The notes under the pieces are model-generated. The model did no database searches and was not told where the DNA came from. It was given only the letters and a program-made list of their open reading frames with translations. Of a stretch of DNA of 64,000 nucleotides, positions 21,986 to 48,205 are shown one piece after another. Source of the stretch: a virus; IMG/VR virus record IMGVR_UViG_3300029258_001212, positions 1-64,000 of that record; one strand, written 5' to 3'. A program made the position numbers and the translations under genes. Each line of letters begins with the position of its first letter. Positions within the stretch are counted from its first letter, which is position 1.

Positions 21986-22591
21986 ATGAGCCAGAATCTG
22001 ATCGAATCCATCCGGAGCCAGGCGGGCTTGAGCGAAGCCAAGGGCCTCACCGAAAGCGCCGGCAGGAGCATTGCCAGGAAGCTGGCAACCATTGGCGCTG
22101 GCGCCCTGGACGGCGCAGCCAAGAAGATGGGCCTCAAGCTGTCCCCCGGGCAGCTTGGGAAAATCTTTCAGGCCACCATGGCTGCCGTGATGCAAGAGTT
22201 ACCAGCAGCGGCCGGGCGCTCAGTGGGGACATTCCGCGAGGGTGTGGACACCGAGCTCGAGGCGGACCTGGTGGAAGATGTGCGCCAGGCGGCGGGGCTC
22301 ATCGAGGCGATGGCCAGCCACAACAAGGAGGGCCTCAAGTTCACCATTCAGACCGCCAGCGGCAAGAAGTACACCGGCATGGTCCAGGGCTCCGGTGGCA
22401 CGATCAAGGAGCTCAAGCGCCTCAAGGCTGCCATCCGCATGGCCACCGATGGGCAGGACTTCGAGGACCGACTGAACATCTATTCGCCCAAACCGCTGCA
22501 CGTGAAGGTCTACCGCGGCTCGGACACCGGCTACGGTTCCAAGTTCGACGTGGTGAACCTCGCTGGCGCGAAGATCCTCGCCGCGAAGTAG
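21986..22591 (+). CDS. Putative capsid-internal cargo protein, two modules
   Basis: MSQNLIESIRSQAGLSE|AKGLTE|S and internal DLVEDVRQAAGLIE|A. Confidence 0.75.
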   Translation: MSQNLIESIRSQAGLSEAKGLTESAGRSIARKLATIGAGALDGAAKKMGLKLSPGQLGKIFQATMAAVMQELPAAAGRSVGTFREGVDTELEADLVEDVRQAAGLIEAMASHNKEGLKFTIQTASGKKYTGMVQGSGGTIKELKRLKAAIRMATDGQDFEDRLNIYSPKPLHVKVYRGSDTGYGSKFDVVNLAGAKILAAK

Positions 22592-22598
22592 GAGCGCC

Positions 22599-22898
22599 AT
22601 GAACATCACCGAGGAGATTCGCCGGGCAGCCGGACTCGAGGAGAGCGACTCGTTTCCGGACCAGCGCCGGGACCAGTGGGACGAGACGATCAACAAGCTG
22701 GTCACCGTCAACCTCCCCGCGGCCGTCAAGAACCTCACCGCAAGCCACAAGGCTCTCATGGCCAAGCTGGCGCAGTCCGGCTACGGCACCCCCGACTCGC
22801 AAAAGGCGATCAAGGACGTGTTCAACCAGGCAAACAACGCCATCAGGAAGCTGTCCAACACGGCGGCTCGGATGGAGGCCCTGGCGAAAAAGAAGTAG
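22599..22898 (+). CDS. Putative capsid-internal cargo protein
   Basis: MNITEEIRRAAGLEE|S followed by a basic helical domain. Confidence 0.75.
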   Translation: MNITEEIRRAAGLEESDSFPDQRRDQWDETINKLVTVNLPAAVKNLTASHKALMAKLAQSGYGTPDSQKAIKDVFNQANNAIRKLSNTAARMEALAKKK

Positions 22899-22908
22899 GA
22901 GCTCACCC

Positions 22909-24633
22909 ATGAACATCCTCGAGGACATTCGCTCCGCGGCCGGTCTCACCGAGTCCAAGCGCAAGCGCCGATTCGGAGACCTACAGCGGGACGCGAGCAA
23001 CGTGGCGGCCCTGCAAACCAAGCTGGCGCAGCTCAAGTCCAAGACGGGCGTGGACACCTCGAGCCGGGCGTTCAAGGCCGGCGTGGCCACGGCCAAGGTG
23101 GACATGCGGCGAGGCGGCGCCAAGCTCGCAGTCCAGGTGCCACAGAAGTCCGACAACAAGGACTGGCGTGATGGCTACCTGTCCGCGCTACCCCTCGAGG
23201 TGGCCATCCAGGCCAGGCGGCGCCTCGGGGAGTCCACCGAGCTCGAGGAGGCCAAGGCCAGGCGGTACACGGGTGACCTACAGGCGGCTTACAGCCGGCT
23301 CAAGCGGCACGCCCACATGCCCCCTCTGGTTATCCAGAAGTACGGCGGCAAGCTCTCTGGTGCTCCCATGTTCGGGCTCCAGGACAAGCAAGGCGAATGG
23401 GTGAGCGACGGGCGCACCAAGGTGCTGTTCAATGACCGCAAGGACGCGGAGCGTTTCCATGTCAGGGCCAACTCGCTGGCCATGCAGGCGTATGCTCCAC
23501 GCGAGTCCACCGAGCTCGAGGAGTCCAAAGGTGCCGACTTCGGTGAGAAGCTCAAGGAGAAGCTCAAGGGCACCGGTTCCTGGAAGTACCAGGACACCGC
23601 CGGCCCGATGAGCTACGCCCTCAAGTGCGACGACGTGGGCAACAAGGGCGACGAGGTGCGCCGCAAGGTCAAGCGGTTCCTCCTGAGCCAGGGCTTCAAG
23701 CTCGCCAAGACGACTGGCAAGCCGGACGGTTTCGAGTGGGGTGAGCCCTACCGTCAGATCTACAAGCGGGACCGGGACGAGGTGAGCATCGAATCGTCCA
23801 CCCCGTTCAAGGGGATTCGGATCATCTACTCTCGGAATACTCAACTCCGTGGGCCCGAAGGCCCCGGCAAGCCCCGCGCCCCCAGGCGCGAGTTCACCGG
23901 CCAAGGGGCACTGTTCGGGGAAAGCCGGCCCCTGGTGGAACCGGACGTGGCGTTCGCCATGGCGCTGGCCAAGGCGATCAAGCGGTACGGCCGGTTCAAG
24001 GTGGAGCCGGGCAAGGGCGGCCAAGGCATGGTGCTGTCCAAGGACGAGGTGGGGCGCCCCCACGAGTGCCGGAAGGCCATCATCGACTGGCTCAAGCGCA
24101 AGGGGTTCACCGAGGCGGCGTTCAAGCCGGGCGGCTGGGAGCATCGCAACCGGTGGATCTACCGCAAGGGCAATGCCCAGGTGGAGATCGCTCACCAGGC
24201 CATCTACGATTCCATGACGGTCACCATCAGCCCCGGGGCCGGCGGCTCCGAGGCCCGGCGGCCGGACCCGATCCAGACCGGCATGTTCGGAGAGTCCACC
24301 ACGAACCGGCTCGAGCGGCTCCTCGAGGCCGTCAAGCTGCACCTCCCCTCGGGGGCAGCCCACCAGATCAAAACCAACCCCCTCGAGTACATCACCACGG
24401 CGGCCATGGACGCCCAGGTGGACCTGCGTGGCGCGGACTCCCTGGCGGACCTACTCGGACGCATGGACCCCCCGCCCCCGCGGGCGGCGATGATCGATGC
24501 TCGGAACGCAGCCGAGCTGGTGGGCAAGGCCCGCGCGGGCGCATGGCGCGCGAAAGGGCTCCTCAAGGACCTGGTGCGCCAGCTCCAGAGCCGGCCATCA
24601 GCCCGGGCCATGGCCCTCGAGGACAGCGAGTAG
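22909..24633 (+). CDS. Putative cargo polyprotein (~5 modules)
   Basis: MNILEDIRSAAGLTE|S; internal linkers ESTELEE|A, ESTELEE|S, LFGESRPLVE, MFGESTTNRLERLLE|A. Confidence 0.75.
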   Translation: MNILEDIRSAAGLTESKRKRRFGDLQRDASNVAALQTKLAQLKSKTGVDTSSRAFKAGVATAKVDMRRGGAKLAVQVPQKSDNKDWRDGYLSALPLEVAIQARRRLGESTELEEAKARRYTGDLQAAYSRLKRHAHMPPLVIQKYGGKLSGAPMFGLQDKQGEWVSDGRTKVLFNDRKDAERFHVRANSLAMQAYAPRESTELEESKGADFGEKLKEKLKGTGSWKYQDTAGPMSYALKCDDVGNKGDEVRRKVKRFLLSQGFKLAKTTGKPDGFEWGEPYRQIYKRDRDEVSIESSTPFKGIRIIYSRNTQLRGPEGPGKPRAPRREFTGQGALFGESRPLVEPDVAFAMALAKAIKRYGRFKVEPGKGGQGMVLSKDEVGRPHECRKAIIDWLKRKGFTEAAFKPGGWEHRNRWIYRKGNAQVEIAHQAIYDSMTVTISPGAGGSEARRPDPIQTGMFGESTTNRLERLLEAVKLHLPSGAAHQIKTNPLEYITTAAMDAQVDLRGADSLADLLGRMDPPPPRAAMIDARNAAELVGKARAGAWRAKGLLKDLVRQLQSRPSARAMALEDSE

Positions 24634-24634
24634 C

Positions 24635-25870
24635 ATGAACAAGGCCGTCTACAAACAGCGATACCCGTTAATACTCCTCGAGGAGCTTGCAGAGCTGATG
24701 GAGGGGCTTGGCGGGCCAGACCCGCAAGACATGATGAAGTCCCTCAACTCCCTGGCGAAGTACAACGGGGGCAAATTCAAGTCCCCGGCCCAGGCAAAAT
24801 TTCTCTACCGCAAGCTCCAGGACCGATGGTTCAAACCGAATTCACTGGTGAAGCAGTGGGCCCGGCCGTACCTCAAGGGCCCAAACGACATGGCCGTCAT
24901 GGTGACGGACAGGATCCAAGGCTTTGGCACACGGACGGCAAGCAAGGTCCGCTATTACGGCTTTGCCTTCGTGGTGGACGGCGGAGGCGTGGTGGCCCGG
25001 GCCAAGCTCAAGGTGCGTGCCGGCCGGGGCAAGGAGGCGGACTCGCATCACGGCGGCGAGGTGATCGGTGTTACCCAGACCACCTTCGAGCGCGATGGTG
25101 ATGCGCCTACCCTGTACGATGCCCACGGTGAGCGGAAGGCCAAGGAGGCGCGAGCTCAAAAGAACGCTCCGCTGATTTCCAAGATCCAAGCGATTTCCAC
25201 CTACCAGGACGATGACTTCCTCCAGAGCATCGTGGCGCAGCTCCAGACTGGAGCCACGTTGTCCCCCGGCCAGGAGCGTGTGCTCGCGCAAAAGATGCCC
25301 TATCAGATGAGCTCCAGGGACAAGTACAAGGAGCTCTGGGCAGAGAGTGAAAAGATCCTGGCTCGCATCGCCAAGGAGGTAGCGCAAGGCATGGCTGTGG
25401 TGGCCAAGTCTGACAGCGTGCCCAAGCGGGACAAGGAATCCTCGCAGGTCTACGGGCAGGGCATCCTGGATGGGTGGAGGCTATTCAAAAAGCGGCCCAC
25501 CAAGACGGGGGAGATCGGTGAGACGAGCTCCCTGTCCGGGTTTGTAGGTGATCTGGCTGGATGGGATGAGCAGAAGCAAGGAAGGGCAGGCGGAGGGTAT
25601 TGGACCCTGGCCTATCTTGGGGCGCTTTTTCACCTGGCAACCAAGGGATCAAAGGCGCCAAAGTGGGCCACGAAAATGGCCCGCGGCGGGGAAATGCTGG
25701 CCAAGGAGCTCAAGAAGATCCCGGCCGGCGCCGCCAAACGCGATTACGTGAGCTTCTACTCAGGGGCAGATGACGATCCGTTCGCTGAATTCGAGGACGA
25801 TGATCAGCACCACGTAGGGCAAGGCGTGGACCATGATCGCCTGGTGTCCAAGGTGCTCAACAGGGACTGA
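24635..25870 (+). CDS. Putative cargo protein
   Basis: LLEELAELME|G leader, Lys-rich body. Confidence 0.7.
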   Translation: MNKAVYKQRYPLILLEELAELMEGLGGPDPQDMMKSLNSLAKYNGGKFKSPAQAKFLYRKLQDRWFKPNSLVKQWARPYLKGPNDMAVMVTDRIQGFGTRTASKVRYYGFAFVVDGGGVVARAKLKVRAGRGKEADSHHGGEVIGVTQTTFERDGDAPTLYDAHGERKAKEARAQKNAPLISKIQAISTYQDDDFLQSIVAQLQTGATLSPGQERVLAQKMPYQMSSRDKYKELWAESEKILARIAKEVAQGMAVVAKSDSVPKRDKESSQVYGQGILDGWRLFKKRPTKTGEIGETSSLSGFVGDLAGWDEQKQGRAGGGYWTLAYLGALFHLATKGSKAPKWATKMARGGEMLAKELKKIPAGAAKRDYVSFYSGADDDPFAEFEDDDQHHVGQGVDHDRLVSKVLNRD

Positions 25871-25873
25871 GCC

Positions 25874-27217
25874 ATGAAGCAACTTCTCGAGGAGCTCGCA
25901 GAGCTAGTGGAGGCGGCCAACGGGCTCATGAAGTACACCGGCCCCACGTGGGACGTGCAGCGCGCAGCGCGGGAGCTCCAGCGGTTCGATTTCATCGCCT
26001 CCTTCGTGGCTCGGATGACCAGGCGCAAGGCGGGCCGCGCCACCGTCAATGGGATGCAGGTGAAGCGGGTGAAGGGCAAGTGGGTCTACGGCTTCCCTCC
26101 CGAGCTGTGGAATCCCCCCGCCCGGGACGCGGCGGCCCTCTATGACACCATCCGGCGCAGCCCTCTCAACTACTACGTGCGCCAGGCAGAGGATCTCCGG
26201 GACGAGCTCCTGAGCGAGGGGCACCTGGTGGAGGCGCGCATCCGTCTCAACAAGACGGAGCAGAAGATCATGAAGCAGCTCCTGAACCCTGCCAGGGGCT
26301 ACTACACGGCGGAGGCGTGGTCTTACAATGGGCCACGGTCTGCCCACGGAACACGAGGTGGCAGCCGGGATTACAACGCTTGCAAGTCCTTGGTGGATAA
26401 AGGGCTGGCCGTTCTCAGGAGCGCGGACGGCTATCGCGTGCCCAGAGAACCAGGGTACATGGCGCACGTTCAAAGCATTGCGATTGAGCTCGCCCCTGGT
26501 GCCAAGGAGCTCCTGGGCGAAGCGAGCCAGATCGGTCTCGACTTCGCGGCCAGGACGAGCAAGCGCAAGCCGGCGAAACCCCGGCGCACCCGCGGGAAAG
26601 GCGGCCTGGACCCGGACACCATCGTCAAGATCTTGGACGTGGTGGACACTCGTGAGTACGAAGAGATCGATGACCGCTGGGTGCCGATCAAAGGCTCGGG
26701 CACCGAGAGCTGGTGCGCCAGGTGCGGGCGCCCCCACGAAGTCCACGCCACCGTGGAGCTCGCGGACAAGCGCACGGCCGTGGTGGGAACGAGCTGCATG
26801 AAGGGCAGCTCCCTGGAGCGCGAAGCCAAGGCAGGGGCCAGCGCGGCGAAGACCATCGCCAAGTGGGAGCGCGAGCTCGCGGTCAAGCGGGAACAGGCCA
26901 AGAAGTACGCCACGATCAAGGCCCAGGTGGACAAGATGCGCCCCCCGCCTGTGGAGGTGAAGCCCTCCGGCGGGAAGTACGGCACCAACTGGAAGGTGGT
27001 CTGCGGAGACGCCTACGTGTACTCGCGCCAGCGCACCCCAGAGGACGCCCTCAAGGATGGGAAGTTCGGGGTGGAGCGGGAGTGGAGGCGAGGCCGGATG
27101 AACGAGCGCGGAGCGACCCTGAAAATGGCGGCTGCCAAGGAGTGGGTGGACGTGCTCGAGCGCAAGCTCAAGGCCAAGAAAAAGGCCCTCGAGGCCCTCT
27201 TGGCCAAGCGCGCCTGA
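25874..27217 (+). CDS. Putative cargo polyprotein (wHTH-like and Zn-finger modules)
   Basis: MKQLLEELAELVE|A; DELLSEGHLVE|A; ELLGE|A; CARCGR...VGTSC. Confidence 0.7.
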   Translation: MKQLLEELAELVEAANGLMKYTGPTWDVQRAARELQRFDFIASFVARMTRRKAGRATVNGMQVKRVKGKWVYGFPPELWNPPARDAAALYDTIRRSPLNYYVRQAEDLRDELLSEGHLVEARIRLNKTEQKIMKQLLNPARGYYTAEAWSYNGPRSAHGTRGGSRDYNACKSLVDKGLAVLRSADGYRVPREPGYMAHVQSIAIELAPGAKELLGEASQIGLDFAARTSKRKPAKPRRTRGKGGLDPDTIVKILDVVDTREYEEIDDRWVPIKGSGTESWCARCGRPHEVHATVELADKRTAVVGTSCMKGSSLEREAKAGASAAKTIAKWERELAVKREQAKKYATIKAQVDKMRPPPVEVKPSGGKYGTNWKVVCGDAYVYSRQRTPEDALKDGKFGVEREWRRGRMNERGATLKMAAAKEWVDVLERKLKAKKKALEALLAKRA

Positions 27218-27398: not shown

Positions 27399-27872
27399 AT
27401 GAACCGGACCCTGACCCTCATCCTGGTGGCGCTCCTGGCCATCGCCTGGCTCCTTACTGGCGGCGGCTGCAAGCGGTGTGACGTGTTCGGAGGCACCCAG
27501 GAATCCAAGGACAAACCCTACCGCGGGGACCCGGCCCAGGCGAAACCCCACCAAACCGTGGTCAAGAAGCTGTGGATCTTGCCCGGCCAGTGCGACAACA
27601 CCGGCTGCACCTACTTCGTGACCGTGACCGTCTGGCTCCACAACCCCACGGCCAAGGCCGTCACCGGGGACGTGACGTGCCACCTGAAGTTCGATGGCGG
27701 CAGCCACACGGACGGGGACACCACCGTGAGCTCGGAGTACACGGCTTCCACCAACTCCCGAAAGGGGGTGACCGTCAAGCCGGGGAGCTCCAAGGAAGTC
27801 AAGATCCAGCACAACGTCTCGGCCTCGAGGCCCACCGAGCTGGTGCCCGACTGCAACACCGTGTTCCGATGA
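27399..27872 (+). CDS. Exported/lipoprotein-like beta-rich protein
   Basis: Hydrophobic N-terminus ending LTGGGC. Confidence 0.6.
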   Translation: MNRTLTLILVALLAIAWLLTGGGCKRCDVFGGTQESKDKPYRGDPAQAKPHQTVVKKLWILPGQCDNTGCTYFVTVTVWLHNPTAKAVTGDVTCHLKFDGGSHTDGDTTVSSEYTASTNSRKGVTVKPGSSKEVKIQHNVSASRPTELVPDCNTVFR

Positions 27873-28462
27873 AGCGCCTCACCATGCTCCTGGCCGGGGC
27901 CGCGGTGGCCCTGGCGGCGTGCGGCTGCCCGAAGCTGGTCAAGCCCTACAGCGCCTTCCTGTCCAGCCCCACCAGCCACAAGATGCCCCCGTGCAAACAG
28001 TGGCGCGCCACCCCCAAGGGCACCCCCATCTGGACCCCCGCGGACCAGGACACCGAGGCGTTCCGGGCCCGGGTGGACACCCTGGTGGACCGCCTCGAGG
28101 CGTGCCTGGTGGCGGCCGGGGAGCTCAAGGAGATCCGACGCCGGAGCTTCGCCGTCATGGTGCCCTCTGACTGGTACGTGTCCAAGTGCTCCGGGGAGCA
28201 ACTCATCCCCTCGCTCGCCAGGTGTGAGCTCTGCCGGGCCAAGGGGCTCGAGATCAAGGACGAGTGCTGTGGGCTTCGCACGCCTACGCCCGCGTGCCCG
28301 TGCGTGTGTAACTTCCGGGCGACGGTCCAGTGGGGACGCATCGTGGTGACAGCTCCGAACCTCAAGCTGTTCAAGGCCGAGCTCGCCAGGATGGTGCTCT
28401 ACCCGAAGCACAACAACCCCTGGGTCACGCCGGCCGTTGCCGCGTGCGTGCGCCCCGAGTAG
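27869..28462 (+). CDS. Cys-rich putative lipoprotein
   Basis: MKRLTMLLAGAAVALAAC lipobox. Confidence 0.65.
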   Translation: MKRLTMLLAGAAVALAACGCPKLVKPYSAFLSSPTSHKMPPCKQWRATPKGTPIWTPADQDTEAFRARVDTLVDRLEACLVAAGELKEIRRRSFAVMVPSDWYVSKCSGEQLIPSLARCELCRAKGLEIKDECCGLRTPTPACPCVCNFRATVQWGRIVVTAPNLKLFKAELARMVLYPKHNNPWVTPAVAACVRPE

Positions 28463-28485: not shown

Positions 28486-28779
28486 ATGCCAGAAGAGACC
28501 GATCCTATTGTCGCAGCGAGAGCCCTACTCGGTGAGCCGGACGAGGCCACCCCGGGCGTCACCAGCATAGCGGACAAGACGATGGCCCAGCGCGAGCAAT
28601 GGATGATCGGGCGCCAGGCGGCCAAGGAGGCAATGCGCCAGGCGGTGCGCCCGGACGGCAACCCCGACGACGTGCTGGCGCTTCCCGCGGAGGGATGTGA
28701 CCAGGACTGGCTCGAGGGATACCTGAGCGTCCTGCCAATCTCCGCCGGTGAGCAGATCACCGAGCGCCTCAATTCCTGA
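28486..28779 (+). CDS. Small acidic protein paralogous to module 1 of 22909-24633
   Basis: DWLEGYLSVLP vs DWRDGYLSALP; RBS AGGAGG. Confidence 0.65.
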   Translation: MPEETDPIVAARALLGEPDEATPGVTSIADKTMAQREQWMIGRQAAKEAMRQAVRPDGNPDDVLALPAEGCDQDWLEGYLSVLPISAGEQITERLNS

Positions 28780-29076: not shown

Positions 29077-29448
29077 ATGCCCACCGAGACCGGAAGAGAC
29101 CTGATCGAATCCATCCGCTCCCAGCTCGGACTCGAGCCCGAGGAGACCAATGAGCCCGCGGAGGGCTTCGATGCCTGGCTCCAGGAGTACGAGCCCGAGA
29201 TGTTCGGGGAGGACGAGGAGCTCGAGGAGGGGCGCAACCCCACGCGGGACAAGTTGAGCAGCCTGGCCCTTCGGTCTAGCTTCGTTGCCACCCAGGCCCA
29301 GGCTTTGAGCAAGTGGGCGGAGGAGTACATGCGGAAGGATCCGTCCCTGTACGCCGGCAAGGAAGCGGCCATCAAAAAGATGCTCAAGGCTGCCCAGGAT
29401 GCGTACAAGATCCTCGAGCCCGCCCTTGGCGAGCTCAAGCGCCGCTAG
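29077..29448 (+). CDS. Putative cargo protein with long acidic leader
   Basis: DLIESIRSQLGLE...EELEE|G. Confidence 0.7.
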   Translation: MPTETGRDLIESIRSQLGLEPEETNEPAEGFDAWLQEYEPEMFGEDEELEEGRNPTRDKLSSLALRSSFVATQAQALSKWAEEYMRKDPSLYAGKEAAIKKMLKAAQDAYKILEPALGELKRR

Positions 29449-29457
29449 GAGAACGCC

Positions 29458-30276
29458 ATGCCCCTCAAGCCCAAGGACAAGAAAGTCATTGCCGCGTTTG
29501 CGGACAAGAAGCCCCTCGAGGGCAAGCTCCTCACAAGTGACGGCAAGACCCTCGAGAAGCTCGGCATGGGCCGCCAGAAGATCGCCTGGTGGGAGGGCCA
29601 CTACGTCAAGGTGTTCCCCACCCTGCCCCACGTGAAGTCCGATGAGGTGATCCTCCGGGCGCTTCGCAGGGCCATTCCGAAAAACTGGCTCAAGGAAGGC
29701 TCCGAGAGTGGCATCGAAGAGAAGCTACGCAATCTCCTCGGTGAGCTCCGCGAGGGGCACGACGTGGAGATGGATCCAGCGGACGAGACCGAAGCCGTCC
29801 TGGACGAGGCCACGGCTGGCTCATTGCGTGCCAGGCGCGAAGCCATGATGGTGGACTTCCTCGAGGAGGCGGCGCGCCGGCTCCAGGGTCCGTTATCCAG
29901 TGCTGCGAAGCTCTCCCTGGCGAAGTACAAGTGGGGGGTGAAGGGGAAGATCCTCCGAGTGCGCGCGAGCGGGCGCTACGGTGGCAGCTACACCATGGCC
30001 GTGGAGCTCCAGTGGTGGGACCGTGAGCCGGTGCTCAAGTACCGTGCCACCGGGAAGACCATGAAGGGGAAAAGCATCTACACGACGGGCGAGCAAGCCA
30101 TGTCCGATGACAGCACCCCCGCGGACATTGCCGGGCAGATCGGCACCTTCGTGACCATCGTGGACACCGAGATGATCGAAGGCTACACCACCGGCGCCCT
30201 TCAGATGTACGGCGACAAGAAGACCGGCCGGGCGCCCAAGGACAGTTTTCAAATCCGCGGTGGCAAGTACCGGTAG
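29458..30276 (+). CDS. Putative cargo polyprotein
   Basis: Internal LKE|G...KLRNLLGELRE|G...VLDE|A linker between two basic modules. Confidence 0.7.
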   Translation: MPLKPKDKKVIAAFADKKPLEGKLLTSDGKTLEKLGMGRQKIAWWEGHYVKVFPTLPHVKSDEVILRALRRAIPKNWLKEGSESGIEEKLRNLLGELREGHDVEMDPADETEAVLDEATAGSLRARREAMMVDFLEEAARRLQGPLSSAAKLSLAKYKWGVKGKILRVRASGRYGGSYTMAVELQWWDREPVLKYRATGKTMKGKSIYTTGEQAMSDDSTPADIAGQIGTFVTIVDTEMIEGYTTGALQMYGDKKTGRAPKDSFQIRGGKYR

Positions 30277-30285
30277 GAGGACACC

Positions 30286-31308
30286 ATGAACACCGACAAG
30301 CTACGCAACCTCCTCGGTGAGCTCCGGAGTGGAGATCTCGAGGAAGGCATGGCCAAGTATTCCGCCTACTGGGTGAAGCAGCTCCCCACGGACCTGATGA
30401 CCCAGACCATGCGGACCATCACGGAGCTCGGCGGCGAGACGGATCGGTTCGGTGTGACGATGCGCGACGATGCGCCGATGACCACTGGGAAGATCCACAT
30501 CCATGAGGCCAGCCTGGCCTACCAGGTGCAGAAGAACCCGAACGCGAAGCTCCTCAAGGCGTTCATGCCCGAGCTCCGCAAGTGGGGGCTCAAGAAAACC
30601 GAATCCAAGGCCCGCGGCAAGCGCCGCGAGGTGCGATTCGAGGGGGCGAACAAGGAGCGCGTCAAGATCACTTTCGAGTACGAGCCCAAGCGCGAGTGGG
30701 GCTGGGTGAACGTGCAGAGCTACGATGCTCGCAGCCGGCTCACCGAGGACACTCTCGAGGAGCGTGCGCCCCTTCCGCGCCCCGGAGACCCCTTTGAGGC
30801 AGACGGGCAGACCTTCAAGATCGTCCGCGTCTATCCCACACGGGACTGGGCGCAAGGGCCGATTTCAGTGCGCCTATGGCGCCTCCTTTCGAGGAACGGC
30901 GCAGCGGCCATCGGGAAGCAGATCAAAGGCACCCAGGACAAGGGCCACTACCTCATCCTGTTCAACAAGCATGGCGACCTGGAGGGCCACCCCGTCTGGA
31001 TGAAGCCGGCCCAGGTGAAGCGTGCCATGAGGTATGAGTCCGTGGAGCTGGACAGCGAGCTCCTGGACGAGGCGAAGTACCCCACCACGGCGGCGGGAGA
31101 CCTACTCGAGAAGATGGCAAACCGGGTTATCCCCATGGTGGCCAGGAGTGTGGGCGCGGTGGATGATGTGCTCCCCTACTTGAGCGGCCAGAAGTCCAAG
31201 GAGATGGTGGCCAAAGCCAGGCAGGCGGCAACGCTGATCACCCAGGCGAACACCAAGCTCTACGAGGCACACGGGCTCCTGAACGAGATCAAGCGGGCAG
31301 GCAAGTAG
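30286..31308 (+). CDS. Putative cargo polyprotein (3 modules)
   Basis: KLRNLLGELRSGDLEE|G; LTEDTLEE|R; ESVELDSELLDE|A. Confidence 0.7.
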   Translation: MNTDKLRNLLGELRSGDLEEGMAKYSAYWVKQLPTDLMTQTMRTITELGGETDRFGVTMRDDAPMTTGKIHIHEASLAYQVQKNPNAKLLKAFMPELRKWGLKKTESKARGKRREVRFEGANKERVKITFEYEPKREWGWVNVQSYDARSRLTEDTLEERAPLPRPGDPFEADGQTFKIVRVYPTRDWAQGPISVRLWRLLSRNGAAAIGKQIKGTQDKGHYLILFNKHGDLEGHPVWMKPAQVKRAMRYESVELDSELLDEAKYPTTAAGDLLEKMANRVIPMVARSVGAVDDVLPYLSGQKSKEMVAKARQAATLITQANTKLYEAHGLLNEIKRAGK

Positions 31309-32245: not shown

Positions 32246-32608
32246 ATGAGCTGGTTTCTCGAGACATACCGCGAGCTCTCTGGCCTGATGGAGGCCACGG
32301 CGTTCCGCGGCCTGAGCAAGGCAGAGCTCAAGGAGCTCATGGCCGAGCTCAAGTCCAAGTTCGGTCCGCTCCGGGCCAAGTATTGGACCACACCGAAGCA
32401 CGCCACCGGACAGGTAACCCTGAAGCCCTACAGGCGGGACCAGGACGCCTGGGGCGAAGACCTGGACCGATGGGTGCGCCTGGTGGACCATCTCATCGCC
32501 TGGGGCGCATTCAGCCCCACGGTGAGCCTCGAGAAGCAACGCGGCGAGCCTGGCGTGTGGGGTAACCAGTTCCCCCTCGCTGGATTGACGTTCTATAGGA
32601 GAGCCTGA
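32246..32608 (+). CDS. Putative cargo protein
   Basis: MSWFLETYRELSGLME|A leader. Confidence 0.7.
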   Translation: MSWFLETYRELSGLMEATAFRGLSKAELKELMAELKSKFGPLRAKYWTTPKHATGQVTLKPYRRDQDAWGEDLDRWVRLVDHLIAWGAFSPTVSLEKQRGEPGVWGNQFPLAGLTFYRRA

Positions 32609-33519
32609 TGCGGAAAAATCATCCCTATCGTGCCACCATGCTGGCCATCAGCCGGCGGATGCAGCGCAGCGGCTACAGCGTGGCCTACACGAAGCATGGG
32701 GACCATGAGCTCGGGGTGCCGGACCCACCGGCCGGGGCGGCGTGGATCTCGTTCACCGAGAGCGAGGACTGCCAGGGCTTTGCCCATGCCCTCGGGTTGC
32801 TCGGGCTCGAGGAGTCCGTGAGCAAAAGCGGCCGGACATGCTTCGAGCTCCCGGACGGCGGCGCCGCGTGCGTGGTCGAGTCCGGTGACGGTACAGGGTA
32901 TCTGTACCTGAGCGAGCTGGGCCCGGTGGAGGAGACCAGGGCGGCCAAGCTGGGCACCCTCCTAGAGACCATCCGCGCGCCGCGCGTCAGCGAGCCAGAT
33001 CCGCTCACCGAGGCCCGCGCGAGCCGGCCAGGGATGACCCAATTCCGCGATCTGACCCTCCGCAAAAAGGTGGTGGACCAGATCATGAAGGCCGTCATGC
33101 AGGACATTCCGATCATCCTCACCGGCCAGCCCGGGTCCGGGCGGATCATGATCGCCCGACGTATTGCCCAGATGGTGAAGGGGCCCCTCCGCGCTCCGCA
33201 CTACACGGTGAGCATGAAGGGCCTGACCGGGACGGTGCGGAACGGCCGTTACGTGGAAGGCGATCTCACCATGGCCAACCAGGGGGTGCTCCTGTTGGAC
33301 GAGGGGGCGGAGATGCGGCGGCCGGCCCTCGAGGCCATCGGCCAGGCGGTGCGCTTGAAGCAGGTGCAGCTCCCTGGGATGCAGGAGCCCCGCCAGGCGG
33401 ACTTCCACCTGGTGATGACGGCTCCGGATGCCTCCGGGGCCAAGCGCGCATTGAAGTTCATGGGGCTCACCAAGGTGGCCACCATTCACATTGCCAAGGG
33501 TGACTTGGCGGTCAAGTAG
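32608..33519 (+). CDS. Putative cargo polyprotein with degenerate ComM/YifB-like AAA+ module
   Basis: LGTLLETIR...PLTE|A then GQPGSGRI...PLRAPHYTVS...GDLTMANQGVLLLDE. Confidence 0.65.
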   Translation: MRKNHPYRATMLAISRRMQRSGYSVAYTKHGDHELGVPDPPAGAAWISFTESEDCQGFAHALGLLGLEESVSKSGRTCFELPDGGAACVVESGDGTGYLYLSELGPVEETRAAKLGTLLETIRAPRVSEPDPLTEARASRPGMTQFRDLTLRKKVVDQIMKAVMQDIPIILTGQPGSGRIMIARRIAQMVKGPLRAPHYTVSMKGLTGTVRNGRYVEGDLTMANQGVLLLDEGAEMRRPALEAIGQAVRLKQVQLPGMQEPRQADFHLVMTAPDASGAKRALKFMGLTKVATIHIAKGDLAVK

Positions 33520-41091: not shown

Positions 41092-42804
41092 ATGGCGAAC
41101 CTGGGCAATCGGATCGTCAACTACGTTCGGGGGATTTTCAGCCGCGACACCGAGGAGCGGATTGAGGCAGCCGGAGGGGTGAACGTCGGGGACTTCCCGA
41201 TGGATCCATTCGGAAACCTGCAAGTCCAGCACATCGGGCAGAACGTGGTCCAGGACGCCCTGATGGTGTCCAATGCTCTGATGGCGCGGATGATCGACTA
41301 CGAGCGCATGGATGAGTATCCGGACTGCAATGCCGCGTTGAACATCTACGCGGACGATGCAACGGTTCCAGATCCGAGCACAAACCATGTGATGTGGTCC
41401 GTGTGTCGGGACGAGCAGATCCGCGGGATGCTCGACACCATGCTACACAGGCGGCTCCACGTGGACGATGAAGCGTGGGAAGCGATCCGGATGCTGGTGA
41501 AGTACGGAAACGACTTCGAGGAGATCCTGGTCAACTCCCGCGGTGTCCAAGGACTCAACTTTCTTCCAGCGCCTACGTGCCGACGCCTCGAGGGGAAACA
41601 GGGCGAGCTCAAGGGCTTCGTGCAGAGCTTCAGGGGCAACTTCACGGTGAACCCAGGCCAGCTCCAGGGGATGCAGTTCCGCCAGGGCGTGGGGCGTGAG
41701 CCACGCAGCGGCGTGGCCCTCTTCGAGCCGTGGCGTGTGGTTCACATGCGGCTCCGGAGCAACCGGCGCCGGGCGATGTACGGGATCGGGATCCTCGAGG
41801 CGTGCAGGTGGGTCTGGAAGCGCCTCATTCTCCTCGAGGACGCGGCGCTGATCAGCCGGCTGGCTCGAGCTCCCAGTCGCTTCGCGTTCTACGTGGACGT
41901 GGGCAAGCTGTCCACCGAGAACGCGGAGAAGTACCTGGACGAGATGCGCCGGAAGCTCAAGAAAAAGAAGTTCGTGAACCCACGGACCGGCCAGCTCGAT
42001 CTACGATTCAACCCTCTGTCCACGGATGAGGATTTCTTCCTCCCGGTGCGCGACAGCCGGGAGGTGGTCCGAGCGGACGTGCTCAACACGCCCACCTGGA
42101 CGGGCGTGGAAGATGTGGCCTACTTCCGCGACAAGCTCCACGCCAGTCTGATGATCCCGAAGGCGTACCTGGGCTACGATGAGAATCTCCCGAGCCGCGC
42201 TACGCTCTCCCAGGAGGACGTGCGGTTCGCCCGGACGGTGCTCCGGGTCCAGCGCGAGTACAAGGCGGGGATGCGGAAGGTGGCCAAGGTACACCTCGCC
42301 AGTCAGGGGATCGATCCGGCCTATGTGGACTTCGATCTGGCCATGACGGTGCCGAGCTCCATCTTCGAGCTCGCACGCCTCGAGATCCAGAACACCCGAG
42401 CCACGTTCGCTGCCCAGATGGGTGAGCTCGTTTCGAAGCACTGGCTTCTCGCCAACGTGTTCAACTTCTCGGACGCTGAGATCGAAAAAGTGATGGTGCA
42501 GCGGCGCGAGGAGCTCACCGAGGAAATGAAGATCCAGCAAGGGCAATTCGAATCCAGGGCCCTCCCCGTCAGAAGCCCGAACCGAATGCTCACGGACAAC
42601 CGTTCCGCGCCAGCGCGCACGCGCGAGCTGTACGGCGTGGAGCGGGATCTGTTCGCAGGAAGCCGCGAAGCGGAGAAACGCCTCGAGGGACGACTGGACC
42701 AGATGCTCACCGAGAACAGGCGTTTCGGAATGCAGCTCGCGCAGATCCAATCCTTCCTGGGCGAGGTGCGCGGAGCCATTCGCACCTCCCAGATGCCTCG
42801 CTGA
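41092..42804 (+). CDS. Portal protein (T4 gp20-like)
   Basis: YERMDEYPDCNAALNIYADDA; LILLEDAALISRLARAPSRFAFYVDVGKL; EDFFLPVR; DVAYFRDKL...IP; EDVRFARTVLRVQ. Confidence 0.92.
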   Translation: MANLGNRIVNYVRGIFSRDTEERIEAAGGVNVGDFPMDPFGNLQVQHIGQNVVQDALMVSNALMARMIDYERMDEYPDCNAALNIYADDATVPDPSTNHVMWSVCRDEQIRGMLDTMLHRRLHVDDEAWEAIRMLVKYGNDFEEILVNSRGVQGLNFLPAPTCRRLEGKQGELKGFVQSFRGNFTVNPGQLQGMQFRQGVGREPRSGVALFEPWRVVHMRLRSNRRRAMYGIGILEACRWVWKRLILLEDAALISRLARAPSRFAFYVDVGKLSTENAEKYLDEMRRKLKKKKFVNPRTGQLDLRFNPLSTDEDFFLPVRDSREVVRADVLNTPTWTGVEDVAYFRDKLHASLMIPKAYLGYDENLPSRATLSQEDVRFARTVLRVQREYKAGMRKVAKVHLASQGIDPAYVDFDLAMTVPSSIFELARLEIQNTRATFAAQMGELVSKHWLLANVFNFSDAEIEKVMVQRREELTEEMKIQQGQFESRALPVRSPNRMLTDNRSAPARTRELYGVERDLFAGSREAEKRLEGRLDQMLTENRRFGMQLAQIQSFLGEVRGAIRTSQMPR

Positions 42805-43992: not shown

Positions 43993-45066
43993 ATGCAAAA
44001 CCGACCGATCCACACCCTGGCCGAGGACTTCCAGTACCTGGGTCTTCCGGTGGACGAGACGGACCACCTGGACGAGATGGACGCCCCGCCCGCGCCCGAC
44101 AAGAAGCAGGCGGCCATGCAGAAGAAGATGAACGTGGCCAAGACGAAGATGGCGGCGCTTCAGAAGAAAGCCCTCAAGGCCGGTGTGCCGGCGGAGGACG
44201 TGGAGCTGGCCATGCTGTCCGTCACCGAGGACGAGCTGGACGAGCTCCCCGAGGACATGGAGACGCTGGACGAGTTCAAGATCGTCAAGTTCTTCAAGAA
44301 CCTCCTCAAGAAAGGCAAGAAGAAGCCGTCCCGCGCCGAGCGGCTCAAGAAGGCCAAAAAGGCGAAGCAGTACCGCAAGGGCCGGGGCCGGTCCCAAGCC
44401 AAGCGGTATCGCAAGAGCTCCCGCTTCAAGAAGCTCAAGAAGCTCTACGCCAAGGCCAAGAAGATGGGCAAAAAGGCCGTGAAGGGCGCCCGGCGCAGCT
44501 TCGCGTCCATGCTCGGCTCGAGCACCGAGTACCCAGGTGGCCAGGAGCTGTCCGAGCTCGGGTCCATCATCAACGCCCTCGAGCACACCGAGGACAGCTC
44601 CCAGTACGCGGCCGGCTACGCCAACATCGCCAAGGCGGCAACGGCCACGGCCGGCGGTCTCCGCGAGCTGGACGAGAGCTACGTGGACATTCACTTCCCG
44701 CTGGACGAGGCGGCCGACTACTGCGAGCTCATCGCCGCGGAGGCCCGGGAGTTCCTGGGCGCCCTCGAGGAGCGCGACGGCACCATCAGCGTGGAGGACC
44801 AGCGGCTCCTGGACGAGCACCTCGCTGAGCTCCACGCGGAAGCCCTCGCCATGGCCAACTACGCCGACGACACCAACATCCTGGTGGCGCTGGACGAGGG
44901 GCGGATGCCCTTCGAGCAGGAGGTGGTGGAGAGCGAGGGTCTGTTCGGCGCGGAGCTGGACGAGGACGAGGACCTGTTCTTCGAGGACGAGGACGAGGAC
45001 GAGGAAGATCCCTTCGAGGGGATCCGCGGCGAAGTCGCCCTCATGTTCGGTATCCGTCACCGCTAG
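43993..45066 (+). CDS. Prohead core-like protein (acidic/basic blocks)
   Basis: Position before protease as for T4 gp67/gp68; very Lys-rich block flanked by acidic regions with LDE sites. Confidence 0.55.
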   Translation: MQNRPIHTLAEDFQYLGLPVDETDHLDEMDAPPAPDKKQAAMQKKMNVAKTKMAALQKKALKAGVPAEDVELAMLSVTEDELDELPEDMETLDEFKIVKFFKNLLKKGKKKPSRAERLKKAKKAKQYRKGRGRSQAKRYRKSSRFKKLKKLYAKAKKMGKKAVKGARRSFASMLGSSTEYPGGQELSELGSIINALEHTEDSSQYAAGYANIAKAATATAGGLRELDESYVDIHFPLDEAADYCELIAAEAREFLGALEERDGTISVEDQRLLDEHLAELHAEALAMANYADDTNILVALDEGRMPFEQEVVESEGLFGAELDEDEDLFFEDEDEDEEDPFEGIRGEVALMFGIRHR

Positions 45067-45075
45067 GAGGCCACC

Positions 45076-46644
45076 GTGGACCAGGTACTCACAGACTGCC
45101 AGCTATTCCGATTCGAGCTGGTGGAGGACCGGGAGGGCTCCGGGGGCATGGTAGCCCGCGGGCCCTTTGCCCGGGCAGGAGTGCCGACGGCCAACGGCCG
45201 GGTGTACTCCGGCAAGCTCTGGGAGCGAGAGCTGTCCCGGCTCCAGGACAAGATCAAGACGAGCAGCTTGTTCGGACTCCTGGACCACCCACAGGACGGC
45301 AAGACCACGCTCAAGGAAGCGTCTCACCTGATCACCAAGCTGACCTTCGATGGCACCAACGTCATCGGGGAGATGCGAGTGCTCGACACCCCCAACGGGC
45401 GCATCCTGAAGTCCATCATCGAAAGCGGAGGCGTTGTGGGCGTCTCCAGCCGTGGCGTGGGGACCACCCGCAAGAACCAACAGGGCATGAGCGAGGTTCA
45501 AGACGACTATCGGCTCCTGTCCTTTGACGCCGTGGCGGACCCGGCGAACGCTACGTCTTGGCCGAAGTTCACCACCGAGGCCGACGATCCGGAGGAGAAC
45601 ATGCCCCTCACCCTCGAGCAACTGAAGGAAACGCACCCCGAGCTGGTGCAGATGATCCAGGCGGAGGCCGTGGCAGACGTGGAGCCGGCCCCGGCGGCGC
45701 CCGACACCGAGGACATGCGCGAGAAGCTCTTGTCCATGGTGCAGGAGCAGCGCGCGGAGGTGGAGAGCCAGGTGCGGAGCGAGCTCCTGAGCGACCCGTC
45801 CGTGGGCGGCTCGCGGCTCGCCCTCGAGGGGGTGATCAAGCTCCTCCGGCCCCTGATGCTCACCGAGGATCAGCACGCCGTCCTGGAGAACAAGGAAGAG
45901 GAGCTGGCGGACACCCGGGCCAAGCTCGAGGAGGCACAGGAGCAGATCTCCCAGCTCGAGGCGGCCGTGGAGGAGCTGGTGGGCATCACCGAGGAGCTCT
46001 CCTGTCGCTACTACGCCGAGCGCGCCCTGGGTACACTCGAGGAGGTGGACACGAAGGAGCACATCCTCGGGATGCTCGGGGACCTGTCCCGCTTCGGATC
46101 CATCGAAGAGTTCAAGGAGGCCCTCGCTTCCACCGTGGAGTCGGTGCTCACCGAGACCACGCGCCAGGAGGAGGAGAACGCAGAGCTCGCGGCCATGAAG
46201 GCCGAGAACGAGAAGCTCCGCAAGGCCCTGGGCAAGTCTGTGGAGCTCGGCAAGGCCCTGGGCACCAAGGCGTACCTCGAGCAGCGCCTGAACGCTCATC
46301 CCCAGGCCAGCGCCATCCGCGAGCAAGCGGAGAACGTGCGTCTGGAGGGCAAGCGTGCCGTGGATCGCCTGATCGAATCCTTCGAGGCGGCCAACCCCTT
46401 GTCGGACGAGTTCGATCAGATCTCGTCCGAGTTCGGCGGCGGCCTGTCCCACCTCACCGAGGGGGACGAGGATCCGCAGGACTTCACCGAGGGGTTCACG
46501 GGCGCCATGCACATGCCGGAGGGTGGCGGCGGCCAGGTGCCCCTCACCGAGGACGGCTACGATCTGTTCGGTGTGGGCCAGAAAGAGCTCCGGAAGCTCT
46601 GCGGCCTGTCCGAGGGACGCGACGACGACAAGGGGCCCTACTAG
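45076..46644 (+). CDS. Prohead protease (T4 gp21-like) fused to coiled-coil scaffold
   Basis: NGRVY, GLLDHP, ASHLI, LDTPNGRIL, GVSSRGVG, FDAVADPA; C-terminal acidic coiled coil. Confidence 0.9.
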   Translation: MDQVLTDCQLFRFELVEDREGSGGMVARGPFARAGVPTANGRVYSGKLWERELSRLQDKIKTSSLFGLLDHPQDGKTTLKEASHLITKLTFDGTNVIGEMRVLDTPNGRILKSIIESGGVVGVSSRGVGTTRKNQQGMSEVQDDYRLLSFDAVADPANATSWPKFTTEADDPEENMPLTLEQLKETHPELVQMIQAEAVADVEPAPAAPDTEDMREKLLSMVQEQRAEVESQVRSELLSDPSVGGSRLALEGVIKLLRPLMLTEDQHAVLENKEEELADTRAKLEEAQEQISQLEAAVEELVGITEELSCRYYAERALGTLEEVDTKEHILGMLGDLSRFGSIEEFKEALASTVESVLTETTRQEEENAELAAMKAENEKLRKALGKSVELGKALGTKAYLEQRLNAHPQASAIREQAENVRLEGKRAVDRLIESFEAANPLSDEFDQISSEFGGGLSHLTEGDEDPQDFTEGFTGAMHMPEGGGGQVPLTEDGYDLFGVGQKELRKLCGLSEGRDDDKGPY

Positions 46645-46705: not shown

Positions 46706-48205
46706 ATGCAGGCAAGAGACATGGTGAAGGCCCCGGGCGGCTTCGGAGGCCAGGACCGGGTGGACGAGATCCTCAAGCAGAAGTGGGCGTGGCTCCTCGA
46801 CGGAATCGAGGAGGACTGGGATCGGCGCAACCTGGCGCGCCTCTTCGAGAACCAGATGAACCACCTCCGCGACGAGGTGCGGAAGTCCGGGATCATCAGC
46901 GAAGCCACCACCAAGGCGGCCGTGCCGGACTACGTGAAGTTCATCTTCCCGCTGGTCCGCCGCGTCTGGGCGAGCCTGTTCGCCAACGGCCTGGTGAGCG
47001 TCCAGCCGATGAGCGCCCCCATCGGCGGGATCTTCTTCTTCGAGTACAAGTACGGCACCACCAAGGGATCGGTCACCGCGGGTCAGAACATGATCCAGAA
47101 CTTCGACCGGTTCTACAGCTCGGAGCGCGTGTACCACGAGCTGGTGGACACCGGAGACGGTGCCACGGCCAACTACACCGGGACCCTGGACTGGTTCCCG
47201 GTGGTGCCGAAGGACAACTTCGGCCGCGCGGGCCTCGAGTTCACCACGGTGGACGTGTCCGACAACGTGCTCCGGATCTACGATGCGGACGGATCCGGCA
47301 CCCTGGCCGGTGACACGGGCGGCGCGTCCACGGTCACCTACGCCAGCGGCGACTTCAACATCACGTTCTCCGCGAACGTGAAGAACCTCACCCCCATCTA
47401 CGCCAACTACTGGTTCAGCATGGAGGCGGCCAGTGCCAACGTGCCGGAGGTGAACGTCGAGATCTCCCTCGAGCCCGTCCAGGCGTGGAGCCGCAAGCTC
47501 AAGGCGCTGTGGAGCTCGGAGGCGGCCGACGACATGCGCGCCATGCTCGGGCTCGACATCGAATCCGAGCTGGTGGGCGGCCTGGCCAGCGAGATCGGGC
47601 TGGAGATCGACCGCGAGATCATCCAGGACCTGTACGTGGCGGCGGACGCCGGCACCAACAAGGACACCTTCGACGCGACGGTGCCCCCCGGCCGGAGCCC
47701 GGTGGAGCACTACTCCGGGATCCTCACCAAGCTGGACAAGATCGCCACGGAGATCCACACCCGCACCAAGCGCGGTCCGGGCAACTTCATCGTGTGCGCG
47801 CCCGACGTGTCCACGGTGATCTCGGCCCTGAGCCGCCACGGCGACTTCAAGGGCGTGTTCTCCCAGACCGATCCCGTCCAGGGCATCGGCACCGGCGGGC
47901 GCCCCGGCTTCCCGCTCCCGAACGCCCCGCAGGGCTACGGGATCTTCGAGGCCGGCACGCTCCAGAACCGCTGGCGCGTGATCGTGGATCCGTACTTCGA
48001 GTCGGGCAAGGCCGTGGTCGGGCTCAAGGGGAGCACCTTCCTCGACAGCGGCTACGCCTACGCCCCCTACGTGGGGCTCCAGATCACCAGCACCTGGCTG
48101 GATCCGGGCAACTTCCAGGCCCGCAAGGGCCTCCGGACCCGGTACGCCACGAAGCTGATGAACAGCAACTTCTACGGCGCCCTCGAGGTGAACAACACCC
48201 CGTAG
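46706..48205 (+). CDS. Major capsid protein (T4 gp23-like)
   Basis: LFENQ, PLVRRV, VSVQPMSAPIG, SRKLKALWS.EAADD, EIDREII, GNFIV, YAPYV, TRY; predicted maturation site IISE|A. Confidence 0.95.
   Translation: MQARDMVKAPGGFGGQDRVDEILKQKWAWLLDGIEEDWDRRNLARLFENQMNHLRDEVRKSGIISEATTKAAVPDYVKFIFPLVRRVWASLFANGLVSVQPMSAPIGGIFFFEYKYGTTKGSVTAGQNMIQNFDRFYSSERVYHELVDTGDGATANYTGTLDWFPVVPKDNFGRAGLEFTTVDVSDNVLRIYDADGSGTLAGDTGGASTVTYASGDFNITFSANVKNLTPIYANYWFSMEAASANVPEVNVEISLEPVQAWSRKLKALWSSEAADDMRAMLGLDIESELVGGLASEIGLEIDREIIQDLYVAADAGTNKDTFDATVPPGRSPVEHYSGILTKLDKIATEIHTRTKRGPGNFIVCAPDVSTVISALSRHGDFKGVFSQTDPVQGIGTGGRPGFPLPNAPQGYGIFEAGTLQNRWRVIVDPYFESGKAVVGLKGSTFLDSGYAYAPYVGLQITSTWLDPGNFQARKGLRTRYATKLMNSNFYGALEVNNTP

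Follow-up and report, generated by a model that had tools for sequence, protein, structure and literature searches.

Genomic setting and architecture of P0001

We analyzed the first 64 kb (64,000 nucleotides; hereafter, the window) of the 153,540-bp uncultured virus record IMGVR_UViG_3300029258_001212, in which direct terminal repeats are present. The guanine-plus-cytosine (GC) content of the window is approximately 65%. The subject of this report is an open reading frame (ORF) on the plus strand at 22909..24633, termed P0001, which starts with ATG and encodes a protein of 574 residues (63.6 kDa; isoelectric point (pI), 9.9). We propose that P0001 may be a chain of five once-separate cargo cassettes from the gene array that occupies approximately 21-38 kb of the window.

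The product opens with an acidic leader, MNILEDIRSAAGLTE/S (residues 1-15; 22909..22953; here and below the slash follows the Glu of the motif), and continues with five modules parted by four linkers. Module 1 (residues 16-106; 22954..23226) is helical and basic, and AlphaFold2 (AF2) placed helices over residues 51-115 with a predicted local distance difference test (pLDDT) score of 70-78. It is followed by linker 1, GESTELEE/A (residues 107-114; 23227..23250), which holds both L-G-E/S and L-E-E/A. Module 2 (residues 115-197; 23251..23499) is a small alpha/beta module that ends at linker 2, RESTELEE/S (residues 198-205; 23500..23523). Module 3 (residues 206-336; 23524..23916) is separated from its paralogue, module 4, by linker 3, GESRPLVE/P (residues 337-344; 23917..23940), which comes after a Gly/Pro-rich disordered stretch. 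Module 4 (residues 345-460; 23941..24288) is composed of two helices packed on an antiparallel sheet, and linker 4, GESTTNRLERLLE/A (residues 461-473; 24289..24327), connects it to the helical module 5 (residues 474-574; 24328..24630). Linkers 1, 2, and 4 each contain the 9-mer GAGTCCACC in frame.

All four linkers were found where a preliminary description of this DNA had placed them, and the tandem paralogy that it had claimed for modules 3 and 4 was confirmed by local alignment (score 83, compared to 29 +/- 5 for shuffled sequences; z 10.9; 0 of 300 shuffles scored as high). Pairwise alignment against shuffles revealed no similarity between any other pair of P0001 modules. The end of module 1 (DWRDGYLSALP...) is paralogous to the C-terminus of a 97-residue ORF at 28486-28779 (DWLEGYLSVLP...; z 9.2 against shuffles).

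If P0001 were cut after the L-x-E of its leader and linkers, the 15-residue acidic leader would be followed by pieces of 10.9, 10.3, 15.7, 14.4, and 10.8 kDa, all of them basic (pI 9.3-10.4). The motif [LI]-x-E followed by A, G, or S was seen five times in P0001 compared to 1.2 expected (P 0.007), an excess that is modest when taken alone. Of the eight L-x-E sites, only one falls within a confidently folded core. The module borders are backed more strongly by the insertions and deletions (indels) of a relative, by homology breakpoints in four other proteins, and by AF2 confidence, as described below.

Independence of the modules

A word-index search of 5.8 billion proteins returned P0002 (547 residues, on a 153,114-bp contig) as the only close relative of P0001, with 89-93% DNA identity over the shared parts. 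P0002 is without exactly window positions 23230-23502 (273 nucleotides, 91 codons), corresponding to module 2 plus one copy of the linker. This indel is flanked by direct repeats of 26 nucleotides at 23230-23255 and 23503-23528, which are identical at 25 of 26 positions. Within linker 4, P0002 carries an insertion of 174 nucleotides that encodes an extra coiled-coil module of 58 residues. Both indels preserve the reading frame, and the same P0001-type architecture was assembled independently in another metagenome. The ratio of nonsynonymous to synonymous substitution rates (dN/dS) between P0001 and P0002 was 0.29 for the whole gene, with values of 0.17-0.38 for the single modules, which marks the fused ORF as a working gene.

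Only four further relatives, each matched by one module, were recovered when 1.84 billion representatives were searched exhaustively with HMMER. Module 2 is fused to other modules in P0003 (203 residues) and P0006 (177 residues), and module 4 is joined in P0005 (382 residues) to the C-terminal domain of the protein encoded by a neighboring gene of P0001 (25874-27217). P0004 (106 residues) consists of module 5 alone, after MLGETELSE/G.

The AF2 model of P0001, built on an alignment of six sequences, had a predicted template modeling score (pTM) of 0.25. Confident cores were observed at residues 51-115, 139-194, 208-311, and 345-443, and pLDDT fell below 50 at residues 116-125, 195-207, 312-343, and 444 onward. 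This model supports the presence of independent domains in P0001. Module 4 folded alone reached a pLDDT of 78 and a pTM of 0.69.

The independence of the modules that the preliminary description had proposed agrees with the module-sized indel, the stand-alone and recombined homologues, and the AF2 predictions. The search that it had recommended for homologues of single modules found module 5 alone (P0004) and modules 2 and 4 in other combinations (P0003, P0006, and P0005). Its expectation of independent domains joined by disordered linkers stood as regards the domains, with low pLDDT at all four linkers, and disorder was shown weakly by an alignment of six sequences.

Linkers as translated gene junctions

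The starts of genes in these phages are preceded by (T)AGGAG-NN-CACC-ATG, in which a TAG stop codon often overlaps the Shine-Dalgarno sequence. Cassettes in the related phages are laid out as Shine-Dalgarno sequence, spacer, ATG, leader, small basic module, and stop codon, and adjacent cassettes are frequently in frame over a 9-nucleotide junction (TAG GAG NNC ACN ATG). In the genome of P0001, a 9-nucleotide in-frame junction of the form TAG GAG NNC ACN ATG occurs at 29448/29458, 30276/30286, 31308/31318, and 34155/34165, and a change from stop to sense codon at such a junction would fuse the neighbors into a polyprotein. Among short junctions between adjacent array genes, 6 of 13 are in frame, no significant excess over the approximately 4.3 expected, and what is notable is limited to the recurring 9-nucleotide form.

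The linkers of P0001 resemble these junctions at the DNA level. Linkers 1 and 2 read GGG GAG TCC ACC GAG and CGC GAG TCC ACC GAG, respectively, and linker 4 reads GGA GAG TCC ACC ACG AAC CGG CTC, namely, a Shine-Dalgarno-like GGAG, the spacer TCCACC, ACG for ATG, and then a short leader, N-R-L-E-R-L-L-E/A. On the plus strand of the window, the 9-mer GAGTCCACC is found only in linkers 1, 2, and 4 of P0001. Six copies are present on both strands compared to 1.2 expected, and none of 100 shuffles reached six. In the related phages, the same 9-mer is the ribosome-binding spacer from stop to start codon. In one of them, L006, GAGTCCACC followed by ATG forms a true junction after a TAG stop codon at 4988; in two other genes, where a sense codon precedes it, it is read in frame as an internal linker (3489 and 5354). 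At the three P0001 junctions, both stop and start codons are replaced by sense codons, and translation runs through the junction as G/R-E-S-T and on into what is left of the next leader.

Because GAGTCCACC is a ribosome-binding junction in the related phages, P0001 is very likely a fusion of leader-tagged cassettes, whose cistrons were joined by replacement of stop and start codons. The preliminary description missed this point: the repeated linker is, judging from its DNA, a translated Shine-Dalgarno junction. Since the linkers would be translated junctions, their E-S-T is explained without protease recognition, and the L-x-E that follows is left as the relevant feature.

Two observations suggest that the linker peptide itself also matters. 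Linker 3 encodes G-E-S via a different Ser codon family (GGG GAA AGC), and P0004, from a distant phage, retains LGETELSE at its N-terminus. Within linker 3, F-G-E/S is conserved in P0002, and L-V-E is replaced there by L-V-D.

Internal translation initiation in the linkers was rejected as a source of separate products. No ATG, GTG, or TTG was present after the Shine-Dalgarno-like sequence in the P0001 linkers, and internal initiation therefore cannot release the P0001 modules. It is possible in the L006 linkers that retain ATG.

A leader family in the gene array

The DNA encoding the P0001 leader is 80% identical to the start of the upstream ORF at 22599..22898 (plus strand), a gene of 99 residues with the same leader (MNITEEIRRAAGLEE/S). 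Downstream on the plus strand, the genes at 24635..25870 and 25874..27217 have the leaders LLEELAELME/G and LLEELAELVE/A, respectively. About 17 genes of the array bear the leader. The contigs bearing P0003, P0005, and P0006 (GC content, 52-61%) are likewise arrays of small genes, nearly all of which open with M-x-x-L-x-x-L-[LI]-E-x-[IL]-R-x-x-A-G-L-x-E followed by A, G, or S.

A hidden Markov model (HMM) of the leader was built from the leaders of three other phages only (L003, L004, and L006) and searched against the six frames of the genome of P0001. The 13 best matches were all on the plus strand between 21.2 and 37.5 kb, some of them N-terminal and some internal, and the start of P0001 was ranked sixth. 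The first match outside the array was ranked 14. The motif [LI]xE[AGS] was observed 42 times in the array compared to 11.2 expected (3.75-fold), and the enrichment in the rest of the genome was 1.32-fold. The preliminary description had inferred one targeting event for the whole chain; the N-terminus of P0001 belongs to a leader family confined to the array.

Leaders and linkers exchange positions between phages. In two pairs of genes with orthologous modules, a sequence that links modules internally in one phage stands at the N-terminus as a leader in the other: 29458-30276 (272 residues) compared with the L002 gene at 16230 (188 residues), and 30286-31308 (340 residues) compared with the L002 gene at 16806 (454 residues). 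In the relative, gene 25874-27217 is short of a module of approximately 105 residues between two L-x-E/A sites.

A function could be assigned to a single gene in any of these arrays. L006:6158-6679, located 1.8 kb from P0006, encodes the leader MSLTLLIEDLRVE/A followed by a Tad6 domain (PF25188, E 1.6e-26). Published work shows Tad6 to bind ThsB and inhibit type I Thoeris (PMC13728456), and this sole assignment is an anti-defense function.

Other genes of the array were also inspected. The gene at 21986-22591 (201 residues) begins with a full leader (MSQNLIESIRSQAGLSE/A) and contains another, intact one at approximately residues 103-119 (DLVEDVRQAAGLIE/A), and is a two-cassette fusion. Another array polyprotein, encoded at 35731-37983 (750 residues), contains near-identical internal leader-type linkers, EDQD[SN]LGELLGEL..., at residues 394-408 and 574-597. 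In the product of 32608-33519 (303 residues), an AAA+ domain was detected in the C-terminal part only (Mg_chelatase, E 7e-14; weaker sub-threshold matches to MCM and Sigma-54). It is preceded by a small N-terminal module and the leader-like linker KLGTLLETIR...DPLTE/A, and this ATPase may itself be a cargo cassette. Two lipoprotein-like genes at 27399-27872 and 27869-28462 have signal peptides ending in Cys and no leader. Their location is conserved in L002 (14095-15158) and also in L006 (9408-10450), which is distant, and they may have a superinfection-exclusion or envelope role.

T4-type head genes

The head genes follow immediately downstream of the array and share its strand. These include genes for a portal protein of the gp20 family (41092..42804; plus strand; PF07230, E 1e-62), a prohead protease of the Peptidase_S77 (T4 gp21) type with a long acidic C-terminal extension (45076..46644; plus strand; PF03420, E 5e-20), and a major capsid protein of the gp23 family (46706..48205; plus strand; PF07068, E 7e-69). 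The protease aligned with T4 gp21 (PDB 5jbl) at E 3.6e-10 and retained the catalytic His in GLLDHP and Ser in VSSRG. In the capsid protein, I-S-E/A is found at residues 64-67, 17 residues upstream of the conserved LVRR...VQPM block, and the gp23 core begins at approximately residue 78. This is the expected kind of propeptide end, which the alignment places approximately 15 residues nearer the core than T4 Glu65/Ala66. The preliminary description had presumed a head protease, and one of the T4 gp21 type is indeed encoded here, together with a capsid protein bearing a candidate site.

Adjoining the protease gene is an ORF at 43993..45066 that encodes an acidic, highly charged, scaffold-like protein of 357 residues with 14 L-x-E sites. 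The C-terminal extension of the protease is an acidic coiled coil of approximately 350 residues with 17 L-x-E sites, resembling a protease-scaffold fusion. Both ORFs end with an [LM]FG motif. The same motif stands before linker 3 and linker 4 of P0001 and before the linker in the ORF at 29077-29448.

Searches for module function

Pfam and PHROG gave no match for the whole of P0001, for each module, or for the homologues, even at E values up to 5. No match to P0001 was obtained by tblastn and blastn against 50,697 phage records, and Foldseek searches with the model of the whole P0001 and with module 4 returned nothing at E <= 0.001. With an HMM of modules 3 and 4, no additional copies of these modules were detected in the genome of P0001.

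Several candidate assignments were rejected. For module 4, a lipoprotein fold like that of LppA, DcrB, or PA1624 was considered, and the best PDB match (Z 8.4, VIA-align) was not diagnostic. Because this Z value is within the range of common arrangements, no function was assigned. HicA-like or double-stranded RNA-binding domain (dsRBD)-like folds for modules 3 and 4 were borne out by no search. An AP2/ERF-like identity for module 2 was suggested by a sub-threshold lead in the ESM Atlas (0.78; phage AP2/ERF-like clusters), and Pfam gave no support.

Discussion

The best overall explanation, towards which we lean by analogy with T4, is that P0001 consists of fused cargo cassettes that are loaded into the capsid and cut by the head protease. 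The N-terminal leader would carry the whole chain into the prohead scaffolding core, in the manner of the T4 capsid targeting sequence, and a gp21-type S77 protease would cut after Glu at the leader and the linkers. Five basic proteins of 10-16 kDa would be released, stay with the DNA, and enter the next host on ejection; there, at least some proteins from arrays of this kind would act against host defense. If the protease restores separate products, the fused and split states are nearly equivalent, which would explain the differences between close relatives in whole modules and in leader or linker position. The parts of this explanation differ in strength. Judged by the same analogy, it appears probable that P0001 is targeted to the capsid and loses its leader. 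Cutting of the internal linkers is a closer question, which tilts slightly in favor of cutting; the cut rule fits at linkers 1, 2, and 4.

Several points weigh against this explanation. Linker 3 fits the cut rule poorly: Pro occupies P1', the relative reads L-V-D, and modules 3 and 4 could be separated only through the non-canonical F-G-E/S. The E-S-T of the linkers is accounted for by DNA history and not by protease recognition, and linkers 1 and 2 keep merely a short leader remnant (ELEE). The specificity of the protease is deduced from its family membership and from one candidate capsid site, which is imperfectly aligned to that of T4, and the closest cultured phage is distant (capsid identity <= 33%). 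No module or homologue was recognized by Pfam or PHROG. Disorder of the linkers is weakly shown because the AF2 alignment has little depth and confidence is likewise low for module 5 and the N-terminus.

P0001 and its neighbors could instead be cytoplasmic takeover or anti-defense proteins made after infection and not carried in the virion, with the N-terminal segment acting as a translation-initiation or recombination cassette or as a partner-binding helix and with L-x-E occurring incidentally. The leader DNA and the junctions are conserved at the nucleotide level and clearly mediate gain, loss, and fusion of cassettes; Tad proteins in published work act as expressed proteins and are not known to be packaged; and acidic Leu/Glu-rich helices readily yield L-x-E by composition. 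However, the leader end, [LIVM]-x-E followed by A, G, or S, exceeds the composition-based expectation 3.75-fold and is array-specific, and a pure DNA-level signal would not preserve the peptide across phages of 52-65% GC. The location of the array next to the head genes on the same strand, the presence in the phage of a protease family that uses the L-x-E rule, and the combination of basic bodies with acidic leaders, as in the T4 internal proteins, also make this alternative unlikely.

Alternatively, P0001 could be capsid cargo that loses its leader only and is ejected as one multi-domain protein of approximately 62 kDa, the linkers being neutral fossils of junctions. The relatives' orthologous modules use the same sequence as a removable N-terminal leader, and a canonical L-x-E plus small residue is retained at linkers 1, 2, and 4 in both phages. 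The G-E-S of linker 3, with its different Ser codon family, suggests peptide-level constraint, and T4 gp21 requires little beyond an accessible L/I-x-E (PMC9026906). We consider a single ejected protein quite unlikely on these grounds, although linkers that arose from Shine-Dalgarno junctions do not have to serve any function, linker 3 is a weak candidate for cutting in which E is changed to D in the relative, and nearly all cleavages in phage SPN3US take off N-terminal propeptides (PMC10052503).

It is improbable that P0001 is a component of the prohead core or scaffold like T4 gp22, gp67, and gp68, whose fragments would leave the head or neutralize DNA charge. Cleavage at L/I-x-E breaks T4 core proteins into multiple pieces (PMC9026906), the basic modules of P0001 could bind DNA, and domain scans recognized an effector domain in none of them. 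The head gene module, however, already has an acidic scaffold-like protein (43993-45066) and a protease with a scaffold-like tail. The P0001 modules are folded alpha/beta domains under purifying selection, and their content varies between approximately 90%-identical phages, which fits accessory cargo better than an essential core. Finally, a decaying fusion or an assembly artefact without function, for which the origin of P0001 by loss of stop and start codons might speak, is almost certainly excluded by the dN/dS of 0.17-0.38 in every module, the in-frame 273- and 174-nucleotide indels, and the independent assembly of the same architecture in another metagenome.

Comparison with known systems

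Among known systems, the internal-protein and capsid-targeting system of T4 appears closest to that of fused, capsid-loaded cassettes proposed here; by analogy, the phage of P0001 probably works alike, and P0001 is no member of that system by sequence. T4 gp21 cuts after L/I-x-E with few other determinants (PMC9026906), and the T4 internal proteins share only a capsid targeting sequence of approximately 10 residues, which provides entry into the scaffolding core and is then removed (PMC9026906, PMC3012670). As in the case of T4 IPI, IPII, IPIII, and Alt, the head here is formed from gp20, gp21, and gp23 homologues, a short acidic amphipathic propeptide ending in L/I-x-E stands on otherwise unrelated small basic proteins, and the gene set is hypervariable among relatives. 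The Tad6 domain in the array of a relative provides an anti-defense member comparable to T4 IPI*. Homology of P0001 to IPI, IPII, IPIII, or Alt was not found with PHROG, with Pfam, or by tblastn in the 50,697 phage records. The present system differs from that of T4 in that the leader is longer (approximately 15-20 residues) and has another consensus, that about 17 genes bear a leader compared to 3-4 in T4, and that cassettes are chained in one ORF with leader remnants as linkers.

Multi-site cleavage by a protease of this type is known from other head proteins. T4 core proteins are cut at several sites (PMC9026906), and gp21 homologues of giant phages make many cuts per head, some propeptides being cut several times (PMC9026906, PMC10052503). 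P0001 would resemble T4 gp22, gp67, and gp68 and the head and ejection proteins of phiKZ, 201phi2-1, and SPN3US in that one S77-type protease acts at several after-Glu sites per substrate (PMC9026906, PMC10052503). In those cases the extra cuts fragment a discarded propeptide or scaffold, whereas the pieces of P0001 are folded and conserved and are separate genes elsewhere.

P0001 also shares features with the polyvalent proteins (Iyer et al. 2017, PMC5512222), in which unrelated modules are contained in one polypeptide, are shuffled among relatives, and are predicted to be delivered together with DNA. The polyvalent proteins have recognizable enzyme domains, and have their own peptidase domains where processing has been proposed (PMC5512222). 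In contrast, the P0001 modules are small and of no known family, no recognizable conflict-related enzyme or binding domain was found in them by Pfam, even at E values up to 5, and the proposed protease would act in trans at head-maturation sites. The resemblance to the polyproteins of eukaryotic RNA viruses, in which a viral protease makes multiple mature proteins from one ORF, is an analogy only; the protease here would be of another family, there is no replication role, and the origin lies in fusion of cistrons across Shine-Dalgarno junctions.

The preliminary description regarded a polyprotein strategy as little described for tailed phages. It is less unprecedented than this, given the published work on T4 targeting, multi-site cleavage, and polyvalent injected proteins. 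We found no description in the literature of leader-tagged cargo polyproteins with L-x-E linkers, or of linkers derived from Shine-Dalgarno junctions.

Implications

A wider proposal, which we put forward tentatively, is that phages of the T4 superfamily hold their cargo as evolvable cassettes kept in frame across 9-nucleotide junctions. Single-codon changes would switch between separate genes and polyproteins, the head protease would equalize both states, and dozens of anti-defense proteins, such as inhibitors of the Tad6 type, could be reshuffled, loaded together ready-made, and act before phage transcription. Proteins injected together with the DNA act before phage gene expression and are thus suited to disarming host immunity, a task that in T4 falls to three or four internal proteins.

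If the explanation of fused, capsid-loaded cassettes is true, distant T4-like phages have expanded the address-and-cut mechanism of T4 into arrays of approximately 17 genes and into polyproteins, and the conversion of junctions to linkers shows how cargo arrays evolve. The leader and linker rule would then serve for finding virion cargo and candidate anti-defense proteins in uncultured phages, and the leaders and linkers of the system could be used as natural parts when several foreign proteins are to be loaded into T4-type capsids under one tag.

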